From: a virus
Reading direction: 5' to 3' (one strand)
DNA: 64,000 nt
IMG/VR virus record: IMGVR_UViG_3300022902_000004
Span: 254,268-318,267 of that record
Part shown: positions 35,358-58,196 of the stretch, piece after piece
Layout of the letters: each line of letters starts with the position of its first letter
Numbering within the stretch: the first letter of the stretch is position 1
Made by a program: the position numbers and the translations under genes
Notes under the pieces: model-generated
The model's input: only the letters and a program-made list of their open reading frames with translations
The model's database searches: none
What the model was told of the DNA's origin: nothing

Positions 35358-36095
35358 TTACACAGAGGAACCAAGAAACCTGAGCACACCCGATTTTATT
35401 GATGCAACGGATGAATCGAACGCCGCCTCAGACGCGTCGATGTAGAAAAAGTTCTCTTTGAACAGTTTTTCGTATGCCTCTCTGTTCCTTTCAACAGCTT
35501 TCCAAGACCGAATGACGTCCTCTTCATCCACACCTCGGCCACCTTGGGCAGCTCGGTTCACGTTCCTGGCCAACGACACTTCCAATGGAACATCGACATA
35601 AATCATGCCGACTTCATATCCAGCATTAGCAAACTCTTTGAACTGTTTTGAAATCTCTCTGTAGTTGCCACCGGTACCGTCAATCAAAACATTATCGCCG
35701 GTGCCCATGAGTGACTTTTTTAGGTGCTTGGCTGCATTGCGTGCCCGGGAGAACAGCGTCATATTCTGACTGAAGATGGCCCTGAGTCGACGGTATTCTG
35801 GCTCTGCATCGGACATTGCCTGTTCGTCACCAACTCCCTGGGCTTCCAAGAATGTTGCCTTGGCCAATTTGTATTCTTCAAGTAAGTCCTTTCTATCAAG
35901 CGGGATACCTGCCTTCTTGAGCGCCGCCTCATAATCGTCGTCCGGGTTGACTACAGTTAGCTGGCTTCCAATACCAAGTTTTCTAATTGCTGTTGATTTT
36001 CCAGATGCAGGTCCGCCGGCCATGAAAATAGCAGAAGGTTTGGCTTGGAGTGCCTCCCGGAGAACCCGTCGAATATATTGTCGTAGCATTTTCAT
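35358..36095 (-). CDS. P-loop nucleoside/polynucleotide kinase-like protein with CTS-like leader
   Basis: AIFMAGGPASGKSTAIRKLG Walker A; N-terminal MKMLRQYIRRVLRE. Confidence 0.65.
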   Translation of the reverse strand: MKMLRQYIRRVLREALQAKPSAIFMAGGPASGKSTAIRKLGIGSQLTVVNPDDDYEAALKKAGIPLDRKDLLEEYKLAKATFLEAQGVGDEQAMSDAEPEYRRLRAIFSQNMTLFSRARNAAKHLKKSLMGTGDNVLIDGTGGNYREISKQFKEFANAGYEVGMIYVDVPLEVSLARNVNRAAQGGRGVDEEDVIRSWKAVERNREAYEKLFKENFFYIDASEAAFDSSVASIKSGVLRFLGSSV

Positions 36096-36748
36096 AGGTC
36101 CACGTTTGCGTTTGTAATAAGCTTCCCAGCGACGCTCAGGGCACCAATCGTTGGGGTACCACTGGCATAGTATGCCTTGGACAATGAGCTGTTCAGGTAT
36201 TTCTGTTGCTCAGCTTTGCGCTTCTTTTCATCGTTGTGGAAAAGGCCCCACCAATTTGTTTGCATGTCGGCGTCGTCATCTGGTGTTTCTGTTTCGTGGT
36301 GGTCATAATCAGGCCGAAAGTCGAACTGTTTCTTTTCGATGTCATCACGGTTGTTCATGTAAAAGTTCCACACGTTGGTGGCATCCGGTGAGACAGAGGC
36401 TCTATCAGGTGTGAGCCCGAAGCCTTTCATACCAAGACGCTCCATGACAACATCATACAGCATCGGTCCCCAACTATGAGCTGCTTTGTGGCCAGTATTG
36501 ACCCGAGCAAGAATGACAGAATATGCTTTCATTTTCTTGGCGACTTCATCACCTGGTAGCAACTTTGCCGCCACAAACCCATTGATGTCGTCGCCTCGAT
36601 TGAATCGCTTGCCATCTTTGTCACAGTAAAATGCCCGGATGAAATCGCTGGCTTCAACAATCTTGACGTGCACTTCATCCGGCAGGTCATTCGGTCCTTT
36701 GGCAGATTCAGTCAGAACTTGCCTGACATAATTTTGTAATACGTTCAT
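36092..36748 (-). CDS. paralog family F protein (SWGPMLYDVVME motif) with CTS-like leader
   Basis: Trimmed to MNVLQNYVRQVLTE. Shares motif with 56845..57369 and 58853..59479. Confidence 0.55.
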   Translation of the reverse strand: MNVLQNYVRQVLTESAKGPNDLPDEVHVKIVEASDFIRAFYCDKDGKRFNRGDDINGFVAAKLLPGDEVAKKMKAYSVILARVNTGHKAAHSWGPMLYDVVMERLGMKGFGLTPDRASVSPDATNVWNFYMNNRDDIEKKQFDFRPDYDHHETETPDDDADMQTNWWGLFHNDEKKRKAEQQKYLNSSLSKAYYASGTPTIGALSVAGKLITNANVDL

Positions 36749-38499
36749 CACACATTTCCCATCATAATCTTCAGATGTTTCGCGCCTGACTTGCCAATTT
36801 TCCGGTAGTACCAACCATCTGAATCCGGCCCGAAGTTTCTGTTTGGGTGTGGTCCCAGCCATTCGATTGGTTTCTTGAGGATGGCACGAACCTTGGCTTC
36901 ATCTGTCACAGCGTTCACGCCTGCTTTGAATGCAAGCCATGCAGGTGCACCAGACGTCTCGACGAAGGTACCTTTCCTCTTCAGTAAGTCAAACATATGT
37001 TGAGATGTTGGGTTCTTGCCATCTGCACCATCATGCCCGCGACCACCGATCTTGAGGCGACCGTCTTTGTACTTGCCAAAAATGACACCGTCGGGTTGCG
37101 GATCTTCATCCACATCAACGGTATCGAAGAACTCGTAACCACCTGGTAAATCCTCAGGCTTTTTGATTTTGAGGTTGCCACCGATTGGGGCATATGCGGT
37201 TGAAATCAGGTCGAGAACCTCATCATCGATATCAACTTCTTTCCTGTGTACTGCGAGTTCTTCAGCAGGTACATCTTCCCATTTATTTTTAGGTACGCCC
37301 ATATCTGCGAACGTCTTTTCTAGCAGAATGTTCATACGAAGAAACGATTCAGTCAATGACTTGAACACGTCCACCTCAGCAGAGTGCATCGCCTGTCCAA
37401 TCTGGGGACCCTTCAATCCTTTTGCCATTAGTTCCTGTGGTCGGAGTGTTGGGGACCTCTGGACGAACTCCAGGAACCCTTGAACGAACTTCTCGGGCAT
37501 ACCGACTGCCAACGCAAACTCTTCCAGCTTTTCCGGAGGAACCCTAAGTCGCTTGAATTCTTTCTTCAATTTTGGTGAAGTGGACGCAACAATTCCAGGC
37601 AGATTCAATAGGAACTGAACCATCCCGGCCTCGTCGCTTGTGTACTTCATCTTCCGTAGGACCTTGGCAACTGCGCCCGGGTCGTTCCCCCAAAGAAGAA
37701 GGGCAACCTGAACATCGAAATGTTTCGAAGCAGGTGCTGCGTCGACTTCAAGTCCTGGGAAAATCTGTGGCCACAAACCTAGGTCACCAATGAGCCCCAG
37801 AAGGTGCTGCCCGTCGATTGCTGACTTGACTGCCTTAGCAAACTCGTCATGAATACGTTCTGGCGACACGCCTGATAGGTCGTTGTCTCGCTTGATTGCT
37901 GAGGCAGTTGTTTCATCCAAGTCGGAGCCTAGACGAGCAGCGAACCTGACAGCCCGCAGAATACGAAGCTTGTCCTCCCTAAATCGAAGGGCAGGATCAC
38001 CGACAGCGCGGATGACTCCATTCTTTACGTCCTCAATACCGCCAACGTAGTCGACCACCTCACCGGTTGTCAAGTCGTAGAAGAGAGCATTGATTGTAAG
38101 GTCACGACGGTTTACATCGTCCTCGATTGTAGTGAACTCAACAGAGTCAGGACGTCGGCCTTCACCAATGTCATTTCTGAACGTTGCAATTTCGTATTCC
38201 TCACCACCGACAGTTCGAACCCGAACAACGCCAAACGCCTTGCCAGTTAGATCGATGCGATGTGATGGGTCCTTTGAAACAATGTCGATGACACGTTGTG
38301 GTTCGGCACCTGTTGCAAGGTCGTAGTCCTTCGGGATTTTCCCGAGGAGTGTATCCCTGACGGCACCACCAACAACGTATAGCTCCTCACCAGCCTCCAT
38401 GAAGGCATCCAGGATCCCGCCCAAATCGGCAGGAGTCTGCAGGTGCATTTTCATTTTGATTGGGGCACGGTCCAGCATTTCAAGAATGTTTTGTTGCAT
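36748..38499 (-). CDS. cca: tRNA nucleotidyltransferase (CCA-adding enzyme / polyA polymerase family), 583 aa
   Basis: YVVGGAVRDTLLGKIPKDYDLAT head-domain signature. Long C-terminal extension. Confidence 0.8.
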   Translation of the reverse strand: MQQNILEMLDRAPIKMKMHLQTPADLGGILDAFMEAGEELYVVGGAVRDTLLGKIPKDYDLATGAEPQRVIDIVSKDPSHRIDLTGKAFGVVRVRTVGGEEYEIATFRNDIGEGRRPDSVEFTTIEDDVNRRDLTINALFYDLTTGEVVDYVGGIEDVKNGVIRAVGDPALRFREDKLRILRAVRFAARLGSDLDETTASAIKRDNDLSGVSPERIHDEFAKAVKSAIDGQHLLGLIGDLGLWPQIFPGLEVDAAPASKHFDVQVALLLWGNDPGAVAKVLRKMKYTSDEAGMVQFLLNLPGIVASTSPKLKKEFKRLRVPPEKLEEFALAVGMPEKFVQGFLEFVQRSPTLRPQELMAKGLKGPQIGQAMHSAEVDVFKSLTESFLRMNILLEKTFADMGVPKNKWEDVPAEELAVHRKEVDIDDEVLDLISTAYAPIGGNLKIKKPEDLPGGYEFFDTVDVDEDPQPDGVIFGKYKDGRLKIGGRGHDGADGKNPTSQHMFDLLKRKGTFVETSGAPAWLAFKAGVNAVTDEAKVRAILKKPIEWLGPHPNRNFGPDSDGWYYRKIGKSGAKHLKIMMGNV

Positions 38500-38556
38500 G
38501 TTCGTAAGCCTGTTCCTTGTCGCCTAACTAAATATCTGCAACCTGTATAAACCGTC

Positions 38557-38850
38557 TTACCCAGCATTCACCAGCACATATGATGATGTGTTGAAAAGCT
38601 GGGTTTCCCCGTGTATAAGGATTTTGTGATGCCATTGGCTTGGGTAATCACAATCGCATATTCTTACATGCTCATTTTGCAATCTATCGAGCTCTTCCCG
38701 ATCTGCATTAGAATAACATCGAGGAGCCGCACTAACTTGAAACGTTTTTATGAAAAGCCCAATGTCACCTTCGAAGTCCCAACCTATAACCCGAACCAAT
38801 GTGCCGGACGGTCTGTTAGGATCTTCATTGATGCTCTCGAATTTGCTCAC
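38557..38850 (-). CDS. hypothetical protein (97 aa)
   Basis: ORF in chain. Confidence 0.5.
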   Translation of the reverse strand: MSKFESINEDPNRPSGTLVRVIGWDFEGDIGLFIKTFQVSAAPRCYSNADREELDRLQNEHVRICDCDYPSQWHHKILIHGETQLFNTSSYVLVNAG

Positions 38851-39146
38851 TTCTTACCTTTCTTGAGCGCCTTCTTTGCCTTCTTGGATGCCTTGAGCAC
38901 AGCGGAATTGGAGTTTGTTGGCTCCTTCGTCTTCTCAGCTCCCGGGACCTGACTCAGGCGAATCTTCACTGAGAACTTATCGATTGCCCGCTTTACAACA
39001 CGGACCTCGACATTCGTGACATCAGACTTCTTCCACTCGTTGACAAGCGCCTTACGCTTCGAGTTGGCCTTCTTGAATGTGTTGACCGTGCACACGACCT
39101 TCCATGGTTTGACGGTATTTTTCACTGTACGGTTCTGCTCGTTCAT
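38847..39146 (-). CDS. small basic (Lys-rich) putative DNA/RNA-binding protein
   Basis: KKAKKALKKGKK tail; ATGA overlap. Confidence 0.5.
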   Translation of the reverse strand: MNEQNRTVKNTVKPWKVVCTVNTFKKANSKRKALVNEWKKSDVTNVEVRVVKRAIDKFSVKIRLSQVPGAEKTKEPTNSNSAVLKASKKAKKALKKGKK

Positions 39147-39568
39147 GCTTCATCCTTTTTTAGGCGCTCAAGCCATTTTTTATCACACGCATCACACCTA
39201 ATACTCATATAGTTGTGATTTCGCATTTTCCCTTTCTCACCACACTCTTCACAGATTCGATAACTGTGAACCTCGGCCGCGTCAATCACGCCTCGAATAT
39301 AGTTGTCGCCACCTTCGTAGTAAAAACGTAGGCCACCAAACTTCTCTTTGATTTGGACCGCAACAAGTTGCTTGGTCTTCCCGATAACCTCTTCCACATG
39401 CTTGTTTTTCGCCATGCGATGTTGGATTATCCGAAGCGTGTCATCAAGCAGATCAATCCAACCATCACCGACAGCAATTCCCCATAACATGGGTGAACCA
39501 GGCTTCTCACACCGGGATAGAATAACAGGATATTTTTTGCATAATTCATCTTGTTTCTCTTTGTTCAT
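39143..39568 (-). CDS. hypothetical protein with C-terminal zinc ribbon
   Basis: CEECGEKG ... CDACDKK. Confidence 0.55.
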   Translation of the reverse strand: MNKEKQDELCKKYPVILSRCEKPGSPMLWGIAVGDGWIDLLDDTLRIIQHRMAKNKHVEEVIGKTKQLVAVQIKEKFGGLRFYYEGGDNYIRGVIDAAEVHSYRICEECGEKGKMRNHNYMSIRCDACDKKWLERLKKDEA

Positions 39569-39601
39569 AGTAGATCCTATTCGATTTCAACCAGGTGTTC
39601 A

Positions 39602-40384: not shown

Positions 40385-40442
40385 GGTAACCCCCTCCGGA
40401 ACACCCCGGGAACATATATATTATACCACGTTTTCCTTTGTC

Positions 40443-40643
40443 TTACACGAAATCTTCGAAAGATCGGGGAATACCCCGCTTGGACGTTTTCTTGATCATT
40501 GAAGGCCGGTCAGGCCGGGATCGACAATGAGGGCATTCCCCATCAGGGCGTTTCTTTTCTTTCCATTCGTCACATGGATCACAGTAATACGCATCGAATA
40601 TTTCATTCAAGTGAACCTGATTGTTGCAAACCTCACACCTCAC
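40443..40643 (-). CDS. small zinc-ribbon protein
   Basis: CEVCNN ... CDPCDEW ... CPHC. Confidence 0.5.
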   Translation of the reverse strand: MRCEVCNNQVHLNEIFDAYYCDPCDEWKEKKRPDGECPHCRSRPDRPSMIKKTSKRGIPRSFEDFV

Positions 40644-40876: not shown

Positions 40877-41005
40877 TTCTATACTCCTGCGCAGAAGAAG
40901 CCTAGGCCAACCGCAATGGCAGTAAATCCTACCAATGCAGCGTAAAAGACACGGTCGTAAGTTCGACCCAATTTGCTTTGCTCGTGATTCATTTCATTCT
41001 CCCCT

Positions 41006-43995: not shown

Positions 43996-44856
43996 CTAAA
44001 TAGGCTCACGCTTAGCGCGCTTAGACCTATTTGGCATACTGTTTCTGCCCATAACCCATCCGACGCGAATGTTGCTTTCAACATCATCAATTGGAACCAA
44101 TTTATTGGCACCATCTTTTTTCATCCATTTTCTTGCTTTGGCAAATTGTGTTCGGCCCGGCTTCCAGCCTTTTTTCAAGTATTCATCAAACAACATGTTT
44201 TGTATTTGCTTGTTTACACCATTTTTACAAACCCATTTAAACGTTTTGCCAAAGTTAGGATTGTTTTCGCCAGTCATTAAATCAGATTGGCGTTGTTTTT
44301 GTTCGTTTGTTCTGGTCGTTCCAAACATCCCGTTCTTTTCGCCCATTAAAGATGCTGATCGTCTTGCAAGCATCACAATTTGTAATTCGTCTGCTTTTTC
44401 TTTGCCATATTTTTCAAGCCATACATCATAGCATCCGCGACCACGCATTCCATGGTTTTTTGATATTAATCGTTTCGTTTTTTCTGTGTGTTTTCTACCA
44501 TAAAAAGGGTTTCCTGTTCCACGAAATGAATCGGCAATTTCATTCAATGCAATATGCTTTTCATGATCAGATGCCAGATGTTGCACACCAAATCGCATTA
44601 ATGCAAAAACCATTTTTGATTTTTCAATGCCGACTAACATTTTTGTTAACAATCTATGAACTGCATAATGCTCAAGCACGGTTAACAAAACAAGATTTTC
44701 ACAGTCGTCGGTGCCACCTAATGATTTCGGTAAAATGTGATGATTATGATAATTGGCTACATCACTTCTTCGTCGACATGAGAGTTTTGCACTTTTAATT
44801 ATTTCATAATATTGGTGCGTTGAATCGTTATCAATAAACATTTTTGTTCGTCGCAT
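43996..44856 (-). CDS. HNH homing endonuclease with NUMOD-like repeats
   Basis: HHILPKSLGGTDDCENLVLLTVLEH; repeats NPFYGRKHTEKTKRLIS and NGMFGTTRTNEQKQRQS. Confidence 0.8.
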   Translation of the reverse strand: MRRTKMFIDNDSTHQYYEIIKSAKLSCRRRSDVANYHNHHILPKSLGGTDDCENLVLLTVLEHYAVHRLLTKMLVGIEKSKMVFALMRFGVQHLASDHEKHIALNEIADSFRGTGNPFYGRKHTEKTKRLISKNHGMRGRGCYDVWLEKYGKEKADELQIVMLARRSASLMGEKNGMFGTTRTNEQKQRQSDLMTGENNPNFGKTFKWVCKNGVNKQIQNMLFDEYLKKGWKPGRTQFAKARKWMKKDGANKLVPIDDVESNIRVGWVMGRNSMPNRSKRAKREPI

Positions 44857-44920: not shown

Positions 44921-45334
44921 TTAAATTGTCCCGTCACCATCGAAAAATGCCATGAGGCGTTTATTGTATGCACCGAATGGGCCGTTGTTAACCCAGGAAA
45001 CTGGAACCCAGGCAACCCAGCCTTCTTTCTTCAGGCGGATGCCTCGAAACTTGACAGGAACACGGCACTTATAGAAGTGCGACCTCTCGCGGTATGCTAC
45101 ATGACTGACGTACGGTTTTTGGAGTAAATCCAATGTGCTCAGCATGATTCCTGTTTCTTCGTACAGCTCTCTGACAGCGGCATAAATCGCATACTCACCG
45201 TCTTCGATCTTACCTCCTGGCAAGCCCCACTTGGTGCTGAAGATTCCCCGGGTTACTCCTAGAACGTAGTCTTCCTTTGTTGGATGGTAAATCAAGACAC
45301 CTGCGCTTTCCAGCGGTCGTCGTTTGTTTTTCAT
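44921..45334 (-). CDS. Nudix hydrolase
   Basis: Nudix box GLPGGKIEDGEYAIYAAVRELYEETG. Trimmed to MKNKRRP with a GAGAGGATGA RBS. Confidence 0.8.
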   Translation of the reverse strand: MKNKRRPLESAGVLIYHPTKEDYVLGVTRGIFSTKWGLPGGKIEDGEYAIYAAVRELYEETGIMLSTLDLLQKPYVSHVAYRERSHFYKCRVPVKFRGIRLKKEGWVAWVPVSWVNNGPFGAYNKRLMAFFDGDGTI

Positions 45335-45350
45335 ATCATCCTCTCTTCGT

Positions 45351-45440
45351 TGGTGTACCCGCCCGGAGTCGAACCGGGGTGTTGAACGCTTCAATTTCAT
45401 GTCATTCACAAGGTTATCCGGTTCTTCTCAACCGGCAAGT
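45351..45440 (-). tRNA. tRNA-like element (canonical T-arm and ACCA 3' end; 5' half not foldable by eye) - possibly degenerate
   Basis: Minus strand ...CCCGGTTCGACTCCGGGCGGGTACACCA-3'. No matching acceptor 5' strand found. Followed by ~350 nt without ORFs. Confidence 0.3.
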
Positions 45441-45787
45441 CTGCCTATAAAACACCCGTCCCGTTCTAGACACTGGGACCCACCTGGCGAGCCAGGGAAC
45501 CATTTAGCAACCATTTTTATCTCAATGCGGTAAAACATCCAGCCAATTTTGGGTATCAAGGTAGTTGGCCACCTCGCAATTATGCAGCTTGTGCGTAAGA
45601 GTACTCCGAGTTATCGTTAGCAATTATCATTTCAGCGTTTTTACGAAGCCGCGCTGCCCTTCGCCTTGCACATTCAATATTATTCGCCCAATCGAAACCA
45701 GTTCGGGCACATTGTTTGTCAAATTCTCCTATGTTCAGCGACGTTTCATCGCCCTCAATATAAGTATAATCATTTTGCGAAAGATGT

Positions 45788-47303: not shown

Positions 47304-48320
47304 TTATATCTCCAAAGGTGATGCCGACCAAATGATCTCATTCAATGACTGACTGCATGATTGGCGCAAAAACTCCCCAACGATAAACTTGAAAGTGTGA
47401 AATTCCTTAATCACAGTAATGAGCTGCCCGTCCTTGTAAAGATTGAAGACACCGACCTCCTCGAAGACATCGCTTTTGTTCATTATCAACGTGTTGACAC
47501 CATTTACGTTTACTGCCTTGATAAGGTTGTCGACGTCCAGCCAATTTGTCTGTCGTGGACGTCCCGTAGTAGCTCCAAACTCGTTGCCAACCTTTTGCAG
47601 TTCATACAACGCAGGCTCTTTACCCTGAAACGCCTTGGCACCGACGTATGTTTCGTATGGCTTGGCCACACCGTACACCTTCTTGATTGCCTGCGGTGGG
47701 ATGCCCGCCATGACAGCTCCGGCGGTGGTGCAGGTTGCAGACGTGACGTATGGATAGTCTCCCCAGTCGACATCGAGATAGAAGCCTTGGGCTCCCTCCA
47801 TTAGGACATTGACATCGGCCTCATTTGTATGAAGTTCCTTGTATTCGTCAATCAAGTAAAGCCCGAGACGCCAGTCTTCCTCAGCACATGTGCCAACACG
47901 ACTGACCTTATCACGATACGCAGGACCATTCCCTGTCTTGGTCGTACCGATTCGGGATTCACCTGCTTCCTCTTCGACATGTTCGGGTGTCACCAAGTGT
48001 GCCTTTTCAGATACACGGAGAAGATCAACCATCTCAATTCCAGCAGCCGCAAGCTCAGATATTTCATTCATCAGCTTTTTGGTGTCGACAACACAGCCTC
48101 GACCAATAATCGATTTCAGCCCGCGGAACACACCGGCTGGCACCAGGTGGGTGACAAATTTCTTCCCTTCGTGGTAGATTGTGTGGCCTGCGTTGGAGCC
48201 TCCACTGAATCGCATGACATGGGTATAGTTTCCCTTCTTCGCCAGCGAATGAACAACCTTTCCTTTGCCGCAGTCGCCACTTTGGCAGTCTACAACAACA
48301 TCTGCTGATAGTTTACTCAT
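47304..48320 (-). CDS. purA: adenylosuccinate synthetase family protein, short archaeal-type (PurA or PurZ)
   Basis: QSGDCGKGKVV and GGSNAGHT P-loop signatures; TKTGNGPAY; YLDVDWGDYPYVTS; GTTGRPRQTNWLD. 338 aa. Confidence 0.85.
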   Translation of the reverse strand: MSKLSADVVVDCQSGDCGKGKVVHSLAKKGNYTHVMRFSGGSNAGHTIYHEGKKFVTHLVPAGVFRGLKSIIGRGCVVDTKKLMNEISELAAAGIEMVDLLRVSEKAHLVTPEHVEEEAGESRIGTTKTGNGPAYRDKVSRVGTCAEEDWRLGLYLIDEYKELHTNEADVNVLMEGAQGFYLDVDWGDYPYVTSATCTTAGAVMAGIPPQAIKKVYGVAKPYETYVGAKAFQGKEPALYELQKVGNEFGATTGRPRQTNWLDVDNLIKAVNVNGVNTLIMNKSDVFEEVGVFNLYKDGQLITVIKEFHTFKFIVGEFLRQSCSQSLNEIIWSASPLEI

Positions 48321-48328
48321 TTTTTCCT

Positions 48329-49213
48329 TTATAAGATTTGTTTGAAATCGTTTATGTCAATTTGTTTTTTCGCGTTTCGCTTGTTTATAATAAAACAAAA
48401 CGTTTTGTTGTTCAGTTTACAATAATCTGTTGCCGCGGCGTTCTTTGCCATGACTTTATCTTTTTGTTTGTCATACCAATATGTGCTTTTTATTTCGACA
48501 AGCTTATTTCCATTTGTTGTTTCAACTTCAAAATCTACAAAATAATGATGAATGGTACCATTATATGCGTATTTTATTGTCGGCCCATTATGGACACGAA
48601 TATTATTACTTTCACAAAATTGAACAAATTTTTGTTCATATGATCCTTGCACCGCAATCGTGTCATCAAATTTTGTAACATAGCGTTTTGACAATGCCCG
48701 GCCACCTCCATTGCATGCTGCCCGATTTGCTATTTCATTATCATGCATTACATTTTCAACGCCATATCGTTCCATAACGACCTTTTTTATTTTTTCTTTG
48801 ATTTCTTGAGACTGTCCGGGATATTCTACACCGTAATTTTTTAGCATTGTTTGCTTTTTCTTTTCTTTGACTTCTTGAGCCTGTGATGGGTTTTCAACAC
48901 CATACTTTTCTAAATTGCTAGCAATGATTCTTTTTTTGATTTGTTTTGCAGCAAAGACATTCTTAACGCCATATCGGTCTAAAGTCGTTTGCTTTCTTTT
49001 CTCGTTAGCTTGACTTGCTTTCGCCTTAATCGACTTTCCTGATCTTTGGCGGCGTCCTGGGTTTGCATCGCAGCACGCTCGCGAGCAAAAATGATAATTT
49101 GCGCTCATACAAGCTTTTCTATACATTCTTTTGAATTTTATGTTGCATGTTTCACATTGCAGTAGCAATGTACGTTTTGGTGGGGCAGTCTTGTGTAGTA
49201 TTTTTATGAACAT
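48329..49213 (-). CDS. homing-endonuclease-like protein: zinc ribbon, tandem YGVxNP repeats, PD-(D/E)xK-like C-terminus
   Basis: Repeats YGVKNVFAAK, YGVENPSQAQ, YGVEYPGQSQ, YGVENVMHD. HYFVDFEVETTNGNKLVEIKS. Strongly AT-rich island. Confidence 0.65.
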   Translation of the reverse strand: MFIKILHKTAPPKRTLLLQCETCNIKFKRMYRKACMSANYHFCSRACCDANPGRRQRSGKSIKAKASQANEKRKQTTLDRYGVKNVFAAKQIKKRIIASNLEKYGVENPSQAQEVKEKKKQTMLKNYGVEYPGQSQEIKEKIKKVVMERYGVENVMHDNEIANRAACNGGGRALSKRYVTKFDDTIAVQGSYEQKFVQFCESNNIRVHNGPTIKYAYNGTIHHYFVDFEVETTNGNKLVEIKSTYWYDKQKDKVMAKNAAATDYCKLNNKTFCFIINKRNAKKQIDINDFKQIL

Positions 49214-51131: not shown

Positions 51132-51162
51132 GTATTTATTCTATGAAAAAGGGTTGTGGTGT

Positions 51163-51556: not shown

Positions 51557-51557
51557 G

Positions 51558-52967
51558 TTAACCCCACGTGTTCTTGCGGACTTCGTCCAGCGTGTAATCC
51601 TGTGTCACCTCACCATCCTCAAACACCGTCTCGAGCAGGTCAGCATCTGATGCCGAAGACTCCGGAACGGTCATGATTTTATTTCCGTCTCTACCTGTCA
51701 TTGCAACCAAGGCATGTCGGCCCGGCTTCGAGCGCTTACCTGGAGCATCAATCGGATCCTTGAACACGTCTCGGCCTTCACCATTTACGCTAATCCAAGA
51801 ACACTTGAATGCAAACTTCTGGGTGTCACGGTTCATCTTCTGGAGCAAGGCTCCTCCTGACCCGAATGCGATATTATCGGCACTCCAACCAGCAGCCATG
51901 ATTGCATCAAGAATCTGGGAAATCACAAAGCGGTCAACTCCATCCCCTTGGATGATACGCACGTGAGGATCTAAGACCTTGTAACCTTTCTTGTTGGTGG
52001 TAAATCCAAAGGCCTCCCCAAGACGCTCCAGACACTCCAGGACAACACTCTGTGGGTCTCCTGAGTCCGGCCGTACGACCAGCGTTCCATCTCGAGCCAG
52101 GATTTCTGCTTTCAGTTCCTGACCCCACAATTCTGAGCACGCTTTGTAAATGTCGTAGCTATCTGAAACGCATGCAACCAGTCCGGTTGGGTATTGCTCC
52201 AGCATGTTTCGAAAGGCATTGACCTCGCCTTCCTTTCCCCACGATGTAATTGTCGAGTGCTCACTGGCTGGAATGCTGAATCCTGCCATTTGAGTGTTGT
52301 AGTGGTTCCTGGCCAATACCAAGGCTGCCACCGTATCTGTTCCCATGAAGTTGACAAGGTGACCGAAGCCACCGATGCCTGCAGTTTCAACAGACGACAC
52401 ACCACGGAAACCGAAGTCGTGCAGTTTGAAGTAGATGCCTGCTGGTGTTCCGGATTTCTCCAGTGCCGCAGCAATAATCAACCGGCTGGCCCGACTAATC
52501 GTTGCCACGGTGCACGGGTACCAAACCTGAACCAGCAAGGTCTCGAGGTAATTGGTCAACCACCAACACTTCGGGTCTGTATTCTCAATCGTCAACATCA
52601 CGTTGTGGGTCGGAACAACTGTTCCTTCCCTGACCGCTTTGATTCTGACGGGCAACCGCCCATCATGCTCATTGAGAATGTGCTCCCAGCCTTCTCGGTT
52701 GAAACACGTATCGTTGCCGAAATGCAGATGGAAGAATTCCTCTGCTTCGTCGATGCGTTCCTGTGTTACGACCTGTCCCTCGAGGTATTCCTGCAAGAAG
52801 TACTGCAGTCCCACGAAGACAACATCGTCGAATTCACCGCCGCGACTCTCAAAGTAGGAGTAAACGGTCTCAGTTCCCTCAGGATATTGCTTGGAATGTG
52901 ATACCTTGTATGAATCTGTCATCAAGATAATGTTTTTTGGATCGATGTTCTTGTTGTAGTAGCTCAT
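51558..52967 (-). CDS. nadV: nicotinamide phosphoribosyltransferase (NAMPT)
   Basis: 469 aa with NAPRTase-family motifs (GTDTVA..., FGFRGVSS). AAGAGGTGAAAGC RBS. Confidence 0.85.
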   Translation of the reverse strand: MSYYNKNIDPKNIILMTDSYKVSHSKQYPEGTETVYSYFESRGGEFDDVVFVGLQYFLQEYLEGQVVTQERIDEAEEFFHLHFGNDTCFNREGWEHILNEHDGRLPVRIKAVREGTVVPTHNVMLTIENTDPKCWWLTNYLETLLVQVWYPCTVATISRASRLIIAAALEKSGTPAGIYFKLHDFGFRGVSSVETAGIGGFGHLVNFMGTDTVAALVLARNHYNTQMAGFSIPASEHSTITSWGKEGEVNAFRNMLEQYPTGLVACVSDSYDIYKACSELWGQELKAEILARDGTLVVRPDSGDPQSVVLECLERLGEAFGFTTNKKGYKVLDPHVRIIQGDGVDRFVISQILDAIMAAGWSADNIAFGSGGALLQKMNRDTQKFAFKCSWISVNGEGRDVFKDPIDAPGKRSKPGRHALVAMTGRDGNKIMTVPESSASDADLLETVFEDGEVTQDYTLDEVRKNTWG

Positions 52968-53968
52968 GCTTTCACCTCTTTCTTCGATGTGATCTTCACT
53001 TTCTTCGGGGACAGTCTTGTACGTTCCTTTGGCATGTTTTTTTCAATGTGCTCCACTAGTGCATTGCAAAGCGGAACGTGCTCATCGCAAACGAAATTTG
53101 AAATCGTTGACGGCAAAACATCCAGTCCACACTTAAGCCTTTCGATTTTGACCCATTCGACTTCGTACAAATCATCTGTCGCCTCAATGGGTCCCCACAA
53201 GTACACACCGGTGAAAAACACAGTCGTGATTTTATCCTGACGTCTTCGATAGCGCCAGTCGTCGATAACGAAAGAGCCAATGTATTTGAGTGGCTTGCTC
53301 ACCTCAATGTTCCCACCGGTTTCCTCGTTGAATTCTCGGAGAGCTCCTTGCTCATGGGTTTCTCCGGGCTGCAAAAAGCCGCCAGGGAACCGTAGCTTGG
53401 CACCTTCATACTTACGACCCATCAAGACTTCATTCGTCTTGTAGTTGATGACAGCCATGTCGGTCGTGCCATACGCAGTCGGGTAACGATTGTATGAACC
53501 GTAAATGACACCGCGGCGGAAGTCGATTGAACCGTTGGCACGTAGTGCTGCTTCGGCTCGAACCTGTGTTCCGCTGATGTAAATCTTCTGCTCCAACTCA
53601 ACGGTTGGGAAGACACCATGGTATCGCAACATGAAGCTGTCTCGGCTACCGTAAAGGGTAACATCTCCAACAGGACACACTTCTCGAATCTTCTTGTCTA
53701 AGAGGGCAGACCAGGGCTTGTCGAATTCTTGGTCTGAAATTGGTAGAACAATAATCTCAGGGTACTTTTCCTGAATCATCTTTTTTCGTAGATCGTAATC
53801 CAGTGGATTCCTTTTGTCTCCCAAACCGGGACAAATCCCGAGGAACACGATCACTTTGTTGTGGGTCTCAGCCACTTCATCCAGAACACCAACGTGTCCT
53901 GCATGCAACTCCGGAATCTGAAATCTCCCGACCACGACTCCAATCTCACGCTTTTTATTATCACTCAT
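52964..53968 (-). CDS. natV: bifunctional NMN adenylyltransferase / Nudix ADP-ribose pyrophosphatase
   Basis: N-terminal GRFQIPELHAGH nucleotidyltransferase motif; C-terminal Nudix box GGFLQPGETHEQGALREFNEETG. ATGA overlap with nadV. Confidence 0.85.
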   Translation of the reverse strand: MSDNKKREIGVVVGRFQIPELHAGHVGVLDEVAETHNKVIVFLGICPGLGDKRNPLDYDLRKKMIQEKYPEIIVLPISDQEFDKPWSALLDKKIREVCPVGDVTLYGSRDSFMLRYHGVFPTVELEQKIYISGTQVRAEAALRANGSIDFRRGVIYGSYNRYPTAYGTTDMAVINYKTNEVLMGRKYEGAKLRFPGGFLQPGETHEQGALREFNEETGGNIEVSKPLKYIGSFVIDDWRYRRRQDKITTVFFTGVYLWGPIEATDDLYEVEWVKIERLKCGLDVLPSTISNFVCDEHVPLCNALVEHIEKNMPKERTRLSPKKVKITSKKEVKA

Positions 53969-54112
53969 TTATACACTCTTCCTTGCTAGGACCACAATCA
54001 ACCTAAGCCTCCCGGCTGTGATTATGATGTTTCGCTGTTTGCCTCCCGGCATTTACGAGAACCCCTTGTCCTCATGATCTAATTATACCCGCCACCATGG
54101 CGATGTACAAAA

Positions 54113-55147
54113 CTATGCTCCGTGCGGTTTATTCTCCTGCTGAGTTGCAGATGAAACCTTCACAAACTCGTGGCGTTCATACAACTCCGGTACTGTTCGT
54201 GCTCCTGAGTATGACAGGCCACTTCGAATCCGCGCCGCGAAGGGTTTCATTACACTAGCAACAGATCCCTTTGGATCAATCATCGCTGTGGTACCTTCAA
54301 TGTATTGTGGGTCCTTGTCACCAGGCTTCTTACGGCGATGCTGGGCAACATTAGATGCCATACCTTCATACGCGATCTTGCCATTCCATGTTCCACCGTT
54401 TGGGCACTCATTCGTTCCTGCGAGAACAGATCCAAGCATCACAAAGCTTGCACCGGCGGCGAGGGCCTTTACAGCGTCACCACTGTTTCGAATGCCACCG
54501 TCTGCAATAATGGGTGCCTCGCTGCGGGATATTTTGACACGACAAACAGACTCAAGCGTCGGCAACCCGTGACCGGTTACAACCCGAGTGGTGCAAACAC
54601 TTCCTCCACCGATGCCAACACGAACCATATCAGCACCTGCTTCATAAAGAAACTCAGCACCAGCTGCTGTGGCAACGTTGCCAGCAATGATCAGAATTTT
54701 ATCACCAAACTCATCCCGTAATCGGTGAATTGCGTCTTTAACATTCTTATGATGTCCATGGGCTACATCGATTAGGAAAATCTTTGTCCCACATAATTCG
54801 TATGCTGCTTTGGCACGTACAAAAAAGTCCCCTGTCGCGCCAATTGCAACTCCGTATAGCGGAGCAGTCACTTTGCGAATGATGTCTAGCTGTTCCTCAA
54901 CGGTATTGTAACGATGGATAATACCCATCCCACCGCAATCACCCAAGGCATTGCACATCTCGTCTTCACAAATCGTTGTCATCGGCGCCGCAATGACGGG
55001 AAGATACAAATAACCAAACCCTCGAGGCAGGCCAGCACCAATCACAATGTCATCCCTCGAGGGGATCGATGATTTGCGTGGTACCAGAAGTACATCATCA
55101 AAACAAATTGTGTCATACGCAAATGCGTTATGTGCATATCGTGTCAT
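54113..55147 (-). CDS. GMP reductase / IMP dehydrogenase family protein lacking CBS domains (GuaC-like)
   Basis: FDDVLLVP and GIGGGSVCTTR catalytic loop. ~344 aa, trimmed to MTRYAHNAF with a GGAG RBS. Confidence 0.75.
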   Translation of the reverse strand: MTRYAHNAFAYDTICFDDVLLVPRKSSIPSRDDIVIGAGLPRGFGYLYLPVIAAPMTTICEDEMCNALGDCGGMGIIHRYNTVEEQLDIIRKVTAPLYGVAIGATGDFFVRAKAAYELCGTKIFLIDVAHGHHKNVKDAIHRLRDEFGDKILIIAGNVATAAGAEFLYEAGADMVRVGIGGGSVCTTRVVTGHGLPTLESVCRVKISRSEAPIIADGGIRNSGDAVKALAAGASFVMLGSVLAGTNECPNGGTWNGKIAYEGMASNVAQHRRKKPGDKDPQYIEGTTAMIDPKGSVASVMKPFAARIRSGLSYSGARTVPELYERHEFVKVSSATQQENKPHGA

Positions 55148-55148
55148 A

Positions 55149-56054
55149 TTACTTATCTCCCCATGATTTTGTTCGCAAGTGAATCGAGAACAGCTTTGCA
55201 GCTCGAGCACCAATTGCTTTCCTTACCTCTCGGGTTGGCTCAAACTCGCCTTCACCTTCGATCATGACATCTTCGATCATTGCAGGAATGATTTTCTGCA
55301 TGTCAGCGTAACCCACATCTTGCGGGAACTTGTCAAGCACATGCTCCAGGCGCATATCGGTAACCCACTCTTCAGCAATTGCTTGGGCGCCATTCAGCTT
55401 CTTCCTTGCATCGGGATCCAAGATGGTGTCACCTTTCGATGCCCGCTCAGAAAACTCAGCAGTCTTGTGTTTTGCCATCAGTCGCTTACCGCTCGGCATT
55501 GCAACCTCTTCGATTGGCCGGAGCACGACACCTTCAGATACTTTATCCTCGATGATACCTCGGCGTTTGGCAACCCGAGACGGTTTATCTCGTTCAATCG
55601 TGACTGCCGCAAGGTTGGCTGGGATCCGTTCATATGGAACGAACTCAAGCCCAAACTTAAGGACAAACTCTTCAGCCCGAGGAACAGGCAACCATTCATT
55701 GCCGAGTTTGACTTCAAATGCGATGAAGAGTAGTTTTGGTCCATATGTGTGCGACATTTTCTGTTGAGCGCCGCCATATGCCTCACCGAAAATGGTTACA
55801 TCAGCATGCCCAAGCTCGTGAAAGATGTCAATGAGTCCTTGCTGATAAAACAAGTCGGTGAACTCTTGATGCTTCGACCCGCCAGAAAAGAATCGCAATA
55901 CGGCATTGTTCTTATTCTTCGGTGTCTTGTTGGTATAACGGATATGTGCCGATGTGCCATGAACTTTCTCCATGGCATAACACTCCTTGAAAAGCAGGAT
56001 GTTTTGGTCTTTGTATAGATTTGAGATCTTGGCGTATCCAATAATGTCCCCCAC
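55149..56054 (-). CDS. rnl2: RNA ligase, Rnl2 family (probable GTG start)
   Basis: Motif I EKVHGTS (T4 Rnl2 KIHGTN). ~300 aa. Confidence 0.75.
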   Translation of the reverse strand: MGDIIGYAKISNLYKDQNILLFKECYAMEKVHGTSAHIRYTNKTPKNKNNAVLRFFSGGSKHQEFTDLFYQQGLIDIFHELGHADVTIFGEAYGGAQQKMSHTYGPKLLFIAFEVKLGNEWLPVPRAEEFVLKFGLEFVPYERIPANLAAVTIERDKPSRVAKRRGIIEDKVSEGVVLRPIEEVAMPSGKRLMAKHKTAEFSERASKGDTILDPDARKKLNGAQAIAEEWVTDMRLEHVLDKFPQDVGYADMQKIIPAMIEDVMIEGEGEFEPTREVRKAIGARAAKLFSIHLRTKSWGDK

Positions 56055-56069
56055 GGGACCTGTGCCCCT

Positions 56070-56112
56070 TATTTATAACTCAATTATATCATAAAAATTG
56101 TCAGTTTACACG
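56070..56112 (-). promoter_or_regulatory. early-promoter cassette (TGATATAAT variant) driving rnl2-guaC-natV-nadV
   Basis: Minus strand GTGTAAAC ... TGATATAAT, ~25 nt upstream of the start. Confidence 0.45.
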
Positions 56113-56157
56113 AACAACTGGATATTTAGTAACGTATACATAACCCATGGAGAATAT

Positions 56158-56823
56158 ATGAAACGCCATTACATAATTTACACATACAAAGATCCTCGAA
56201 ACGACAACATATTCTATGTTGGCCAAAGTATCAACGGAATGAAAAGAGCCCAAGCCTTTAGCCAACACAACGTTTGGTGCAGGAGAGTTATTGCAAAAAT
56301 TGAAGCATCGGGAATGCATGTTGAAATAGAGATCACTGATGAACTTGAAAAGACACGCGACGTCCGAAATGAATTGAACGTCGCTGAAAAGGCTCGCTGT
56401 GCTGCTATTCAAAATGAAGGGCATCATCTAACAAACCTGCTTTTTGGTGAAAACATGAATAGACCGCATCTGTATGAGACAGAAAGAAAAGCTCATGGAA
56501 ACAAAGGAAAAGTTCGAACCGCCGAACATAGAAAGAACATGAGTAAGGCCCAAAAAGGACGTAAGCATTCACCAGAAACAAAAATGAAAACGTCTCAATC
56601 TCTCACAGGTAGAAAAAAGTCTGAGGCTCACAAAAAAGCAATGCGTGATAATTGGTATGAAAAGCGGGGCCCAGAAGTTTTCGAGAAGATTGCCGCATCA
56701 AAACGAGGTAAACCTAGAAGTGAAGAAACAAAGGCGAAAATTTCAGCATCTGGTAAACAAGGTGCACTGAAAGGATGGGAAACCCGAAGACGCAACGCTG
56801 AAGCTAAAACCATACCAGGATGA
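56158..56823 (+). CDS. GIY-YIG homing endonuclease (Seg-like) with NUMOD3 repeats
   Basis: MKRHYIIYTYKD ... FYVGQS. Repeats AEHRKNMSKAQKG, PETKMKTSQSLTG, EETKAKISASGKQ. GGAGAATAT RBS. Opposite strand to neighbours. Confidence 0.75.
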   Translation: MKRHYIIYTYKDPRNDNIFYVGQSINGMKRAQAFSQHNVWCRRVIAKIEASGMHVEIEITDELEKTRDVRNELNVAEKARCAAIQNEGHHLTNLLFGENMNRPHLYETERKAHGNKGKVRTAEHRKNMSKAQKGRKHSPETKMKTSQSLTGRKKSEAHKKAMRDNWYEKRGPEVFEKIAASKRGKPRSEETKAKISASGKQGALKGWETRRRNAEAKTIPG

Positions 56824-56844
56824 ATCTTACACGAAGTTCACACA

Positions 56845-57369
56845 TTACTTTTCTAATAGTTTCTTCATTGATTTGAGTTTTTTCAATGTTGTTGGAGGTT
56901 TTGTCCAGCACATGCCAAGAGCGGGAGTGTCTGAGAATTCGCCGACCTCATCAATATTCGTTCCAGTCACATCCGGGCGGTAATCACGGTAGTGGTTCCA
57001 TACATTTTGGGCTTCATCTGAAACTGGGTCGCGGTCGGCCATGAGCCCATCGCCTTCCTTTGTGGCATACTCCATGGCGACATCGTATAGTAACGGTCCC
57101 CATGATTTTGATGCCCTGACGAAGTTTATCATCCAGACGTTCCCGGCGATATCATGCATCGTTTCTACTGATGCCGGTGGGTCAATGTACATCTCGCCGA
57201 GGGGTGTTCCGCCATGATCGATGGGCTTCTTTGATTTGTCGCTGTAGTAAATGTGTACACCGTACTCATCCATTGCAGACGAGTCAATGGTGATATACAC
57301 ATCGTCTAGGTCATTGATACCGACGGCACGCTCGAGGAGTATTTCAATGTATTCACGGAGGAGCTTCAT
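56845..57369 (-). CDS. paralog family F protein (SWGPLLYDVAME) with CTS-like leader MKLLREYIEILLE
   Basis: Motif shared with 36092..36748 and 58853..59479. Confidence 0.55.
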   Translation of the reverse strand: MKLLREYIEILLERAVGINDLDDVYITIDSSAMDEYGVHIYYSDKSKKPIDHGGTPLGEMYIDPPASVETMHDIAGNVWMINFVRASKSWGPLLYDVAMEYATKEGDGLMADRDPVSDEAQNVWNHYRDYRPDVTGTNIDEVGEFSDTPALGMCWTKPPTTLKKLKSMKKLLEK

Positions 57370-58196
57370 ACCAATTGAGCCCTCAGTTTTGTCTTTGGGT
57401 ATTTGCCCGCCAGTGCGGCGACGGCTTTTATGTTCTTCGCTGAGTCATCTATAAAGTAAATGTCGTCATGGCCGTTGTTGATTTTTTCTTCAATCCAGTC
57501 TGCTTTGACTTGCGGGTCTGAATTGCCTAGCGTCACCAATTCGATGCTGCTTGTATCTATACCAATGTCTTCTAGGAAATCAAGTATTCCTATCCTTGCG
57601 GCATCACCTCGAGCAGTCAAAATCACCACATGCCTGCCTTGGCTTCCGGCTGCCAAAACCCTGCGAAGGATTTTCATGTGCCCCTTGATTGCCTGCGGGT
57701 TTTTGAGGGCACCACCAAATTGGCTATAGTCGAATTCGTCACCTTTGACAGGTTTATAGATCGACCACTCGGCTGGCGTCTGTTCTATCGTCTCACCGGA
57801 TGCCTTGTTCAAGATGATCATTGAATCGGTCATCGCCAGCGTATCATCAAAATCAAAAACCCTTAGCTTTCTTTCGGTAAGCATTTTTTGCTCTACTAGA
57901 TTGCCGAACCGAGAAATATCTTTCGCCGAAACCCAATAGTGTCGTTCGCCATCAGGAAATTCGTCGTCTAAGTTTGCATATTGCTCAGGTATTTCAATTG
58001 CCACAAGCTCATTTCCATAATCATTCGTTGCTTCGCCATTAGGACTTGTTGAAAAATAAACCTCTGTTCCAAAACCCGTTTTTATCTTCGAGGTAAAACC
58101 ATTTCGCTGTATCGCGGCGGCGTTGTTCGTTCGATGGTACAGCAATAGCGTTTTTTCTGCAAGTAGCATCCCAATATATTCGCGGAGGAGTTTCAT
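57366..58196 (-). CDS. two-domain protein: unknown N-terminal domain plus HAD-like phosphatase (DxDxT), CTS-like leader MKLLREYIGMLLAE
   Basis: VFDFDDTLAM motif I; ATGA overlap. Confidence 0.6.
   Translation of the reverse strand: MKLLREYIGMLLAEKTLLLYHRTNNAAAIQRNGFTSKIKTGFGTEVYFSTSPNGEATNDYGNELVAIEIPEQYANLDDEFPDGERHYWVSAKDISRFGNLVEQKMLTERKLRVFDFDDTLAMTDSMIILNKASGETIEQTPAEWSIYKPVKGDEFDYSQFGGALKNPQAIKGHMKILRRVLAAGSQGRHVVILTARGDAARIGILDFLEDIGIDTSSIELVTLGNSDPQVKADWIEEKINNGHDDIYFIDDSAKNIKAVAALAGKYPKTKLRAQLV

Follow-up and report, generated by a model that had tools for sequence, protein, structure and literature searches.

Phage T4 repairs transfer RNAs (tRNAs) that have been cut by an anticodon nuclease with Pnkp and Rnl1, not with Rnl2. 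Another group of repair enzymes, the 'Swiss Army Knife' (SAK) RNA-repair proteins, was reportedly described by Burroughs and Aravind in 2016. In Pfam, the family HAD_SAK_1 is introduced as 'HAD domain family 1 in Swiss Army Knife RNA repair proteins', and for jumbo phages the same list of RNA-repair components as encountered here has already been described (Iyer et al. 2021, PMC7824862, section 3.4.9). The present analysis concerns a window of 64 kb, that is the whole stretch of DNA analysed (positions 254,268 to 318,267 of IMG/VR record IMGVR_UViG_3300022902_000004), which belongs to the genome of an uncultivated huge phage comprising at least 318 kb. Within this window two gene clusters, 33854..38499 and 55149..59479, probably constitute a modular tRNA/RNA end-repair kit of the SAK/jumbo-phage type, a reading that we hold with modest confidence and that rests on sequence comparisons. 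The kit can be regarded as a disaggregated version of the SAK proteins. It would consist of a split Pnkp-like healing pair (kinase and HAD phosphatase), an Rnl2 sealer and a CCA-type 3'-end rebuilder, with a transfer-messenger RNA (tmRNA) alongside, and we lean slightly towards this composition. Since kits of this type are already known from jumbo phages, the finding as such is not new in kind. New are the split and nested kinase/HAD enzymes of uncharacterised families, a GNAT-fold family tied to tRNA nucleotidyltransferases and a leader peptide that resembles a capsid-targeting sequence (CTS). A prior description of the GNAT-fold family or of the shared leader was not found in the literature searched, which did not include Burroughs and Aravind 2016.

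An earlier note on this DNA had proposed a dispersed toolkit of four genes, encoding an Rnl2-type ligase, a P-loop kinase, a HAD phosphatase and a CCA-adding enzyme, and had equated it with that of T4. All four open reading frames (ORFs) are present on the minus strand, with the positions and lengths given below. They do lie apart, but in two compact clusters, both of which hold further members. Cluster A, on the minus strand from 38499 to 33854, comprises the genes for a class II CCA-type nucleotidyltransferase, a GNAT-fold protein, the P-loop kinase, a DUF3307 protein and a metallophosphoesterase. Cluster B, from 59479 to 55149, contains the genes for a GNAT-fold protein, a zincin-like protein, the HAD phosphatase, a second GNAT-fold protein, a homing endonuclease and the Rnl2 ligase. 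The original list of members was incomplete, as the metallophosphoesterase, the three GNAT-fold paralogs, the zincin-like gene, a Nudix gene, the tmRNA and the shared leader had been overlooked. The equation with T4 had to be abandoned: since tRNA repair by T4 relies on Rnl1, the toolkit is not the same, and the kinase and the HAD protein are not demonstrably similar to T4 Pnkp. The genes themselves are genuine and conserved, given that a related contig of 53.5 kb has the same gene order with copies that are 80-91% identical. A megablast search of the region against GenBank phages gave no matches; the nearest GenBank phage is an unannotated 485-kb uncultured phage, whose likeness is limited to the ligase.

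The SAK and jumbo-phage sets, with their class II CCA-type core accompanied by HAD, HD, Nudix and kinase modules, their Rnl2-type ligases, their calcineurin-like phosphatases and, in jumbo phages, their CCA-adding enzymes, are similar to the set found here, and the nucleotidyltransferase of the window is 50-60% identical to cores that are fused to HAD_SAK_1. By contrast, the modules of the window are separate genes, its HAD protein is neither HAD_SAK_1 nor HAD_SAK_2, and three GNAT-fold paralogs and a shared leader are prominent. With T4 Pnkp and Rnl1/Rnl2 the window has in common a predicted 5'-kinase, a HAD protein (DxDxT, Arg after motif II, DD in motif IV) and an Rnl2-type ligase, and a fused kinase/HAD form occurs in relatives of the window proteins. 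However, the kinase and phosphatase genes of the window are 21 kb apart, the fused relatives have the kinase nested inside the HAD domain instead of at the N-terminus, the phosphatase has no detectable sequence similarity to that of T4, and the similarity to the T4 Pnk kinase is at the P-loop level only. As to the bacterial Pnkp1-Rnl-Hen1 system, the Pnkp1 kinase domain was the top match of the kinase family profile in the PDB (4xrp, 38.8 bits, E 6.8e-9), and the kinase of Clostridium thermocellum Pnkp (CthPnkp) gave the highest target-normalised TM-score (0.73) to the model of the window kinase. These systems also pair a calcineurin-type metallophosphoesterase and a ligase with the kinase, and the metallophosphoesterase gene of the window is located 0.7 kb downstream of the kinase gene. 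On the other hand, the window lacks a Hen1 methyltransferase, its ligase is of the Rnl2 type and not a Pnkp/Rnl adenylyltransferase, its enzymes are separate proteins, and Pnkp1 outscores adenylate kinases only slightly.

For the action of such a kit we infer the substrates and the order of reactions throughout, while gene presence, family and motif membership, fusions and neighbourhood links were observed. Host defence RNases would cut tRNA or other RNA, leaving 2',3'-cyclic or 3'-phosphate ends and 5'-OH ends. The 3' end would be cleared by the HAD phosphatase, possibly also by the metallophosphoesterase, and the 5'-OH end would be phosphorylated by the kinase, whereupon the Rnl2 ligase could seal the nick in the still base-paired RNA. 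Damaged 3'-CCA ends would be rebuilt by the nucleotidyltransferase, and ribosomes stalled in the meantime may be rescued by the tmRNA.

Ligase and putative end-healing enzymes

The ligase gene (55149..56054, minus strand, GTG start) encodes an Rnl2-family ATP-dependent RNA ligase of 301 amino acids, which matched the Pfam family RNA_ligase (PF09414) with 42.1 bits (cut-off 27) and phrog_548 with an E value of 1.4e-27. T4 Rnl2 (2hvq) was its sole match in the PDB, and phmmer aligned residues 172-268 to residues 203-299 of T4 Rnl2. In tblastn searches, T4-type RnlB proteins were about 25% identical across 81-95% of the ligase, and a relative with 48% identity was detected in a 485-kb uncultured phage. 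The protein was aligned with three annotated T4-type RnlB proteins. Motif I with the lysine nucleophile, E29-K30-V-H32-G33, matches EKIHG of T4-type RnlB, while motif III (F89-G90-E91) and motifs IV and V (E174-G175-V-V177 and K195-H-K197) are invariant. The same is true for R235 and D262, the essential Arg and Asp of the Rnl2-specific C-terminal domain, whose counterparts in T4 Rnl2 we take to be R266 and D292. Thus every catalytic motif was recovered, which bears out the designation as Rnl2-type ligase. Since the protein falls far short of the NCBIfam equivalog cut-off (TIGR02307, 37.8 versus 197 bits), it is to be regarded as a divergent member of the family. A close relative possesses a second, short RNA_ligase-like ORF of 219 amino acids (L012:1571..2230), for which tblastn revealed no counterpart in the window.

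The P-loop kinase of 245 amino acids (35358..36095, minus strand) begins with the leader MKMLRQYIRRVLRE and contains the P-loop GGPASGKST. Its best Pfam match was Zeta_toxin (55.7 bits), followed by AAA_33 (43.3 bits). In the family alignment of 28 sequences, from which the profile was built, G27, G32, K33, S34, T35, D52, D139-G-T141, R177, R181 and R187 are invariant. D52 in VNPDD matches VNRDD of Pnkp1, and D139-G-T141 matches IDATN of the same protein; the RxxxR lid, the 'NPDD' Asp and 'DGT' resemble Pnk-type kinases. By these motifs the protein is assigned to the Pnk/AAA_33/zeta clade and predicted to be a polynucleotide 5'-kinase with a presumed acceptor. Next to Pnkp1, the profile matched adenylate kinase (36.2 bits), zeta (21.3 bits) and T4 Pnk (20.2 bits). 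An AlphaFold2 model of the kinase had a predicted local distance difference test score of 88. As a discriminator Foldseek was discarded, as the search recovered the generic P-loop core and left polynucleotide, nucleotide and zeta-type kinases undistinguished. A conserved operon around the kinase gene was ruled out as well, the neighbourhoods varying among relatives. In the phage represented by the 204-241-kb contigs L002/L003 (1..968), whose kinase is 48% identical, a second AAA_33 kinase and a SpoU-type RNA methyltransferase are encoded about 7 kb upstream, and the CCA enzyme of this phage (P0263, 764 amino acids) carries a 2H-like and HAD-like tail. This phage points to further RNA-modifying kit members in relatives.

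The HAD phosphatase (57366..58196, minus strand, 276 amino acids) is composed of the leader (residues 1-15), an insert (16-108) and the HAD core (109-276). The core displays D115-F-D117-D-T119 (DFDDT), LTAR, K231 and FIDDS, and across 22 sequences of the family D115, D117, T119, T194, R196, K231, D250 and D251 are invariant. The protein matched Pfam DUF2608 (PF11019) with 27.9 bits (cut-off 22.6) and phrog_415, annotated as 'polynucleotide kinase', with an E value of 9e-13; a tblastn search against GenBank phages yielded nothing. Its family comprises approximately 1,700 proteins, mostly of about 182 amino acids and without the insert. Accordingly, the description as a DxDxT phosphatase of the HAD type is correct with regard to all motifs, but a relation to the phosphatase of T4 Pnkp was not recovered by profile and Pfam searches. 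The possibility that the protein is a SAK-type HAD as fused to CCA enzymes was dismissed, as BLASTP revealed no similarity to HAD_SAK_1 of P0240 and P0275. The insert of about 90 residues (57873..58151, minus strand; 'LLLYHRT...GTEVYFSTS...ELVAIEIPE') is missing from an 89%-identical relative, which possesses a separate GNAT gene of 130 amino acids instead. A similar module is situated at the N-termini of P0288 and P0341, two multi-domain proteins of the WGPLLYD family treated below. By eye, YHRT...YFSTS...E.E was reminiscent of H-Y-E ADP-ribosyltransferase or Tpt1 motifs, an impression for which Pfam and PDB searches gave no support.

The calcineurin-like metallophosphoesterase of cluster A (33854..34630, minus strand, 258 amino acids) matched Metallophos with 38.3 bits and phrog_1649 with an E value of 9e-49, its PDB matches being generic only. 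It is a candidate for a second 3'-end-healing enzyme. Between this gene and the kinase gene lies a gene for a DUF3307 protein of 142 amino acids (34661..35089, minus strand; PF11750, 37.9 bits), whose position is kept in the close relative L014. Its membership in the kit is uncertain.

Nucleotidyltransferase and domain fusions in relatives

Residues 1 to about 400 (37300..38499, minus strand) of the 583-amino-acid protein encoded at 36748..38499 (minus strand) form a class II nucleotidyltransferase core of the CCA-adding/poly(A) polymerase type, with matches to the PolyA_pol head domain (120 bits) and to PolyA_pol_RNAbd in Pfam and with the motifs GGAVRD...DYD, RRD (RRDLT, motif B) and EDKLR (motif D). 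The top PDB matches were the CCA-adding enzymes 6ibp and 1miv and the poly(A) polymerase 3aqm. The two activities scored almost equally, both in the PDB (6ibp 129.4 bits versus 3aqm 128.5 bits) and in NCBIfam (PcnB 183.5 bits versus CCA transferase 179.5 bits, both under cut-off), so that these scores did not discriminate CCA-adding from poly(A)/A-adding specificity. Hence, of the former assignment as a CCA-adding enzyme, the class II nucleotidyltransferase was retained but not the CCA specificity. An identical protein, P0168, is encoded on metagenomic contigs, the longest of which measures 318 kb. The extra C-terminal domain (residues from about 400 to 583; 36748..37299, minus strand), which is preceded by a degenerate leader 'FLRMNILLEK', had no Pfam matches at E<=10 and is kept in the closest relatives P0169 and P0170 only; in other relatives its slot is occupied by kinase, Nudix, GNAT-like, 2H-like or WGPLLYD domains. 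A function of the enzyme in maturing the phage tmRNA was ruled out, since the tmRNA gene encodes its own CCA. ARAGORN detected no tRNA genes in the window.

The fusions found in relatives link the window families to each other. P0027 is a truncated fragment, its ORF running open into the end of the contig; here the kinase family of the window is attached to the last part of a CCA core that shares 44% identity with window residues 296-400 (E 1e-20). On the viral contigs L063 and L070, which count as one lineage because they are closely similar to each other, the kinase family is nested within a HAD domain of the window type in one frame (motif I, kinase, remaining HAD). The nested protein may thus be a Pnkp-like bifunctional enzyme built from the two window families. 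That kinase and phosphatase are split, as claimed before, is correct for the window, and their fusion in L063/L070 is in line with it, but the two halves were not identified as T4-Pnkp-type domains. CCA cores with 50-60% identity to that of the window are fused to HAD_SAK_1, HD_4, Nudix, DUF192 and WGPLLYD domains. Some of them have, by eye, double HxT/S (2H-like) tails with one faint tRNA_lig_CPD match, and the 2H and GNAT assignments on these cores are hints from sub-threshold Pfam matches (E 0.004-0.05). WGPLLYD domains are joined to HAD in the protein P0073 and to a CCA core in P0221, and a gene of this family adjoins the kinase gene in the relatives with 48% identity. Nudix is fused to a CCA core in P0184. 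Several kinase-bearing ORFs are giant and uninterrupted (L063:1312..10395, 3027 amino acids; L070:54..3782, 1242 amino acids; L098:3427..7224, 1265 amino acids).

For the ligase, 94 neighbours of 28 distant relatives were surveyed. The commonest neighbour family was Thg1 (6 of 94), followed by Metallophos (two cases), while HAD_SAK_2, AAA_33, cREC_REC and a second RNA_ligase occurred once each. At one of 33 distant loci (L029), a homolog of the window metallophosphoesterase (31% identical) is located directly downstream of the ligase relative. Conserved adjacency of ligase and HAD genes was ruled out at these 33 loci and thus beyond one close relative.

These fusions and neighbours also bear on an alternative, according to which the kit serves the 3'-CCA end of tRNAs and not the anticodon loop. 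HAD phosphatase, metallophosphoesterase and Nudix would strip the phosphates or pyrophosphates that originate from toxSAS (CapRel, FaRel2), the nucleotidyltransferase would restore the end, and the ligase would act separately. Such a role is suggested by the CCA cores of relatives, which are fused to 3'-end-processing phosphoesterases (HD_4, Nudix, HAD_SAK_1 and 2H-like tails), and by the RelA/SpoT-hydrolase motif HxGQxR..GEPY..HP...LHDxxED in the HD_4 domain of P0275 and P0222. It has been reported that toxSAS pyrophosphorylate the CCA end of tRNA and that SAH-type hydrolases reverse this modification (bioRxiv 10.1101/2021.04.30.441581), and CapRel is an anti-phage system (PMC9712102). The ligase, moreover, is unlinked to the other modules outside close relatives. 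However, the HD_4/SAH domain is absent from the window, the nesting of a kinase in a HAD domain is the classic pairing of 5'-kinase and 3'-phosphatase serving ligation, and Thg1 and cREC beside ligase relatives are break- and end-repair functions. We consider service to the CCA end unlikely; it is compatible with end repair by the complete kit and does not exclude it.

Several results weigh against an end-repair kit. As a single sequence the kinase matched only adenylate and UMP/CMP kinases in the PDB, and these weakly (E 0.004), its NCBIfam matches were weak nucleotide-kinase models, and Pnkp1 is ahead of adenylate kinase by only 2.6 bits in the profile search. Adenylate kinases as closest matches, which would contradict a polynucleotide kinase, were thus obtained with the single sequence, but not with the profile, where Pnkp1 was narrowly first. 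In the fold search the kinase model was about as similar to putative kinases and zeta toxins as to adenylate kinases and the polynucleotide kinase of C. thermocellum, and the neighbours of kinase genes in viral contigs exhibited no enrichment in RNA-repair functions. The HAD protein did not match HAD_SAK_1 (PF10307) or HAD_SAK_2 (PF18143) at E<=0.01, and its family profile found no PDB chain under E 0.9, T4 Pnkp (1ltq) being absent. No HAD, kinase, CCA or WGPLLYD homolog was present within 10 kb of the ligase at the 33 distant loci. The fusion of Nudix to the kinase family in P0035 and the long ORF of L098, in which an N-terminus similar to HIGH-type nucleotidyltransferases (motif WGRLNPVTIGH) is combined with the kinase, could point to nicotinamide adenine dinucleotide (NAD) or nucleotide chemistry. 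In polyvalent phage proteins, a fusion need not imply a common pathway. Finally, an end-repair kit does not account for the three GNAT-fold paralogs. The RNA-repair toolkit as first proposed is partly supported: it gained from the fusions, the neighbours of distant ligase relatives and the ligase motifs, but not from the family identity of kinase and HAD protein or from conserved adjacency.

In keeping with some of these results, kinase and HAD phosphatase might act on small molecules (nucleotides, nicotinamide riboside, or signals derived from NAD or ADP-ribose) together with the neighbouring metabolism genes, in which case the four genes would not form one pathway. The matches of the single kinase sequence to adenylate, UMP-CMP and uridine kinases fit this idea, as does its top Pfam family, since characterised Zeta_toxin members phosphorylate small molecules, e.g. 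uridine diphosphate N-acetylglucosamine and NAD. The Nudix-kinase fusion and the L098 ORF can be interpreted in the same way, the gene following the kinase gene in phage Melnitz encodes an NT5C-type nucleotidase, and genes for NAD salvage and purine metabolism (NAMPT, NMNAT-Nudix, GMP-reductase-like and PurZ-like) are situated between both clusters. On the other hand, the invariant 'NPDD' Asp after strand 2 and 'DGT' fit kinases of the Pnk/AAA_33 type, a conserved Arg binding nucleoside monophosphates is missing after 'DGTGGN' in the kinase family, and the kinase had no Pfam match to AAA_28 (NadR ribosylnicotinamide kinase). Pnkp1 tops the matches of the family profile, and the kinase is fused to a tRNA nucleotidyltransferase core. 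Furthermore, a kinase nested in a phosphatase would give a futile cycle on one small molecule, while 5'-kinase plus 3'-phosphatase is a known rationale. A function in small-molecule metabolism is therefore rather improbable in our opinion.

WGPLLYD proteins and the shared leader

Three paralogs with a GNAT fold, which we call the WGPLLYD family, are encoded on the minus strand of the window. Paralog A (36092..36748, 218 amino acids) starts with the leader MNVLQNYVRQVLTE, and paralog B (56845..57369, 174 amino acids) with MKLLREYIEILLER, recognised by the leader hidden Markov model (HMM) with an E value of 4.5e-7. In a relative, paralog B is 89% identical and likewise follows the HAD gene. For paralog C (58853..59479, 208 amino acids), an alignment with the other two paralogs and the C-terminal domain of P0073 was obtained, in which GWGPLLYDIAME is kept. 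The signature of the family is GWGPLLYDVAME...VW..Y...R.DV. It has 2,648 cluster representatives, and several proteins contain tandem copies. The acetyl-CoA pyrophosphate-binding motif Q/R-x-x-G-x-G/A is absent in the paralogs, the loop being (S/G)-W-G-P-L/M, and not a single Pfam family was matched at E<=10. Between paralog C and the HAD gene, a zincin-like protein of 217 amino acids (58198..58851, minus strand) with the motif HEIQH and a weak leader 'LITFIKRILTED' is encoded, which revealed a faint match to SprT (E 0.006) and is 70% identical in the relative L012.

Four ORFs of the window, those of the kinase, the HAD phosphatase and the WGPLLYD paralogs A and B, open with the leader M-K-L-L-R-E-Y-I-x-x-L-L-x-E. 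The HMM recovered them with E values of 5e-9 to 5e-7 among 1,097 candidate N-termini. The next matches were weak and concerned the zincin gene as a fifth distinct ORF (E 0.33), an ORF at 61406..62122 and the internal linker of the CCA protein. A repeat at the DNA level was ruled out, as the sequences upstream are unrelated and synonymous sites of the codons vary; the likeness is one of peptides. The leader helix heads the CCA enzymes of most relatives and, where relatives have several domains, stands ahead of each of them. In 72 WGPLLYD sequences, conservation of L12 and E14 reaches at least 90%, and the helix is the low-confidence part of both structure models.

The CTS of T4 is MKTYQEFIAE (PMC8442874). 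The gp21 prohead protease cuts it at (L/I)-x-E, and residues 4 and 7 are required for targeting (PMC9026906). Like this sequence, the leader is short, N-terminal and attached to unrelated proteins, has the pattern M-K-x-hydrophobic-(Q/R)-E-(F/Y)-I and ends with (L/I)-x-E. Unlike it, the leader of the huge phage comprises 14 instead of 10 residues and is also located internally before each domain. Kinases of the T4-like branch of the family begin with MKTYQDLQEG, MKSYQELQEG or MKTFxELQEG, and the kinase core follows directly. Melnitz, a cultured T4-like Methylophilales phage, encodes a gp21-type protease and, next to genes for baseplate and tail, a kinase homolog (QZI95068.1) that starts with MKTFAELQEG; N-termini of the CTS-like kind are shared by two unrelated proteins of this phage. 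A kinase homolog is also carried by Pelagibacter phage HTVC008M, likewise in culture. Two adjacent Melnitz genes (L134, MZ577098.1; 14525..14917 and 14914..16866) have products starting with MKKFSELTSE... and MKKFSEIIEA..., respectively. The latter product, of 650 amino acids, contains GRFNPPTTGH, a HIGH-type nucleotidyltransferase (NMNAT-like) motif. Both products may be enzymes that this cultured phage packages into its capsid.

From this indirect evidence, the leader would be compatible with a propeptide for capsid targeting and processing, and a role as structural linker or docking helix is possible. We tentatively suggest an injected kit, in which the leader acts as a capsid-targeting and prohead-protease propeptide, so that the enzymes would be packed into the head, released singly from multi-domain precursors by cuts at every L-x-E, and enter the cell with the DNA, though this seems doubtful on present data. 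Alternatively, the leader-bearing proteins (kinase, HAD, GNAT-fold and zincin) could be virion-packaged, injected counter-defence effectors with unrelated targets, comparable to the domains of polyvalent proteins, their fusions reflecting co-delivery. The recurrence of one leader on unrelated folds and ahead of each domain in relatives with several domains agrees with this interpretation, as do the near-invariant L-x-E at its end, resembling the T4 sequence, the giant ORFs of relatives (1242 to 3027 amino acids) and the zincin-like, ParB-like and GNAT domains among the fused modules. However, the fusion partners are strongly biased to RNA-end chemistry (CCA core, HAD_SAK_1, HD_4, Nudix, 2H-like, kinase), and packaging and RNA repair may coexist. 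Effectors with unrelated targets are an improbable explanation, and we retain RNA end repair as the more likely function of the two clusters, at the confidence expressed at the outset.

Associated genes and biological meaning

The tmRNA gene (45351..45710, minus strand) was detected by ARAGORN and matched Rfam RF00023 with 92 bits (gathering score 47). Its tag peptide is ANDNSEYSYAQAA, and the 3' CCA is gene-encoded. It adjoins a Nudix hydrolase gene (44921..45409, minus strand; NUDIX 55 bits), and the pair is kept in the relative L014; Melnitz likewise encodes a tmRNA. For the tmRNA, an associated function in translation protection by ribosome rescue is proposed, which we infer to be linked to the kit. 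The Nudix hydrolase is a possible kit member that may process RNA 5' ends or nucleotides.

The gene between the HAD cluster and the ligase gene (56098..56823, plus strand; NUMOD3, phrog_314) encodes a homing endonuclease and is a mobile element outside the repair kit. In the close relative, a different HNH gene occupies this site, which suggests independent insertions at one spot. Altogether, three homing-endonuclease-like genes (NUMOD3/HNH; DUF7487 with TnsA-like) were noticed in the window, the other two at 43996..44856 and 48329..49213 on the minus strand.

Further genes of the window belong to metabolism. An adenylosuccinate-synthetase homolog (47304..48320, minus strand), short with 338 amino acids, matches the PurZ PHROG phrog_1211, and a gene of the IMPDH/GMP-reductase family is located at 54113..55213 (minus strand). 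The two might serve 2-aminoadenine (Z-base) DNA or a re-routing of purines. A pair of NAD+ salvage genes, NAMPT (51558..52967, minus strand; phrog_448, E 1e-168) and an NMNAT-Nudix fusion (52964..53968, minus strand), resembles the NadV/NatV pair of KVP40 and sits between both repair clusters. An ORF at 62172..63734 (minus strand) has matches to the Major Vault Protein shoulder, the Vault_3 repeat and SPFH/Band 7, which is unusual in a phage; its homolog in L012 comprises 868 amino acids. Moreover, genes for a MoxR-like AAA_5 ATPase and for a putative metallopeptidase (DUF2201_N) plus VWA-like (DUF2201) protein were identified at 12184..13302 and 29573..30907, respectively, both on the minus strand. 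A close relative contains a TROVE (Ro60-like) plus VWA protein between the PurZ-like gene and the tmRNA region (L012:20015..20549 / L014:1..289), of which tblastn found no counterpart in the window.

RNA-repair kits of phages are directed against host defences in which tRNAs are cut or modified so that translation stops. If the components act as proposed, the window and its relatives would provide experimentalists with a natural split, and in relatives nested, Pnkp-like kinase/phosphatase from uncharacterised families, with a divergent Rnl2 clade that is found repeatedly beside Thg1, and with a very large unannotated GNAT-fold family linked to tRNA nucleotidyltransferases. Should the kit be injected, RNA repair would be available ahead of all phage gene expression, and the GNAT-fold family with its more than 2,600 clusters would be a core member. 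If the leader is a capsid-targeting propeptide, counter-defence RNA-repair enzymes would be delivered pre-made with the genome, and the leader would constitute a simple sequence tag for injected proteins of uncultivated T4-related and huge phages.

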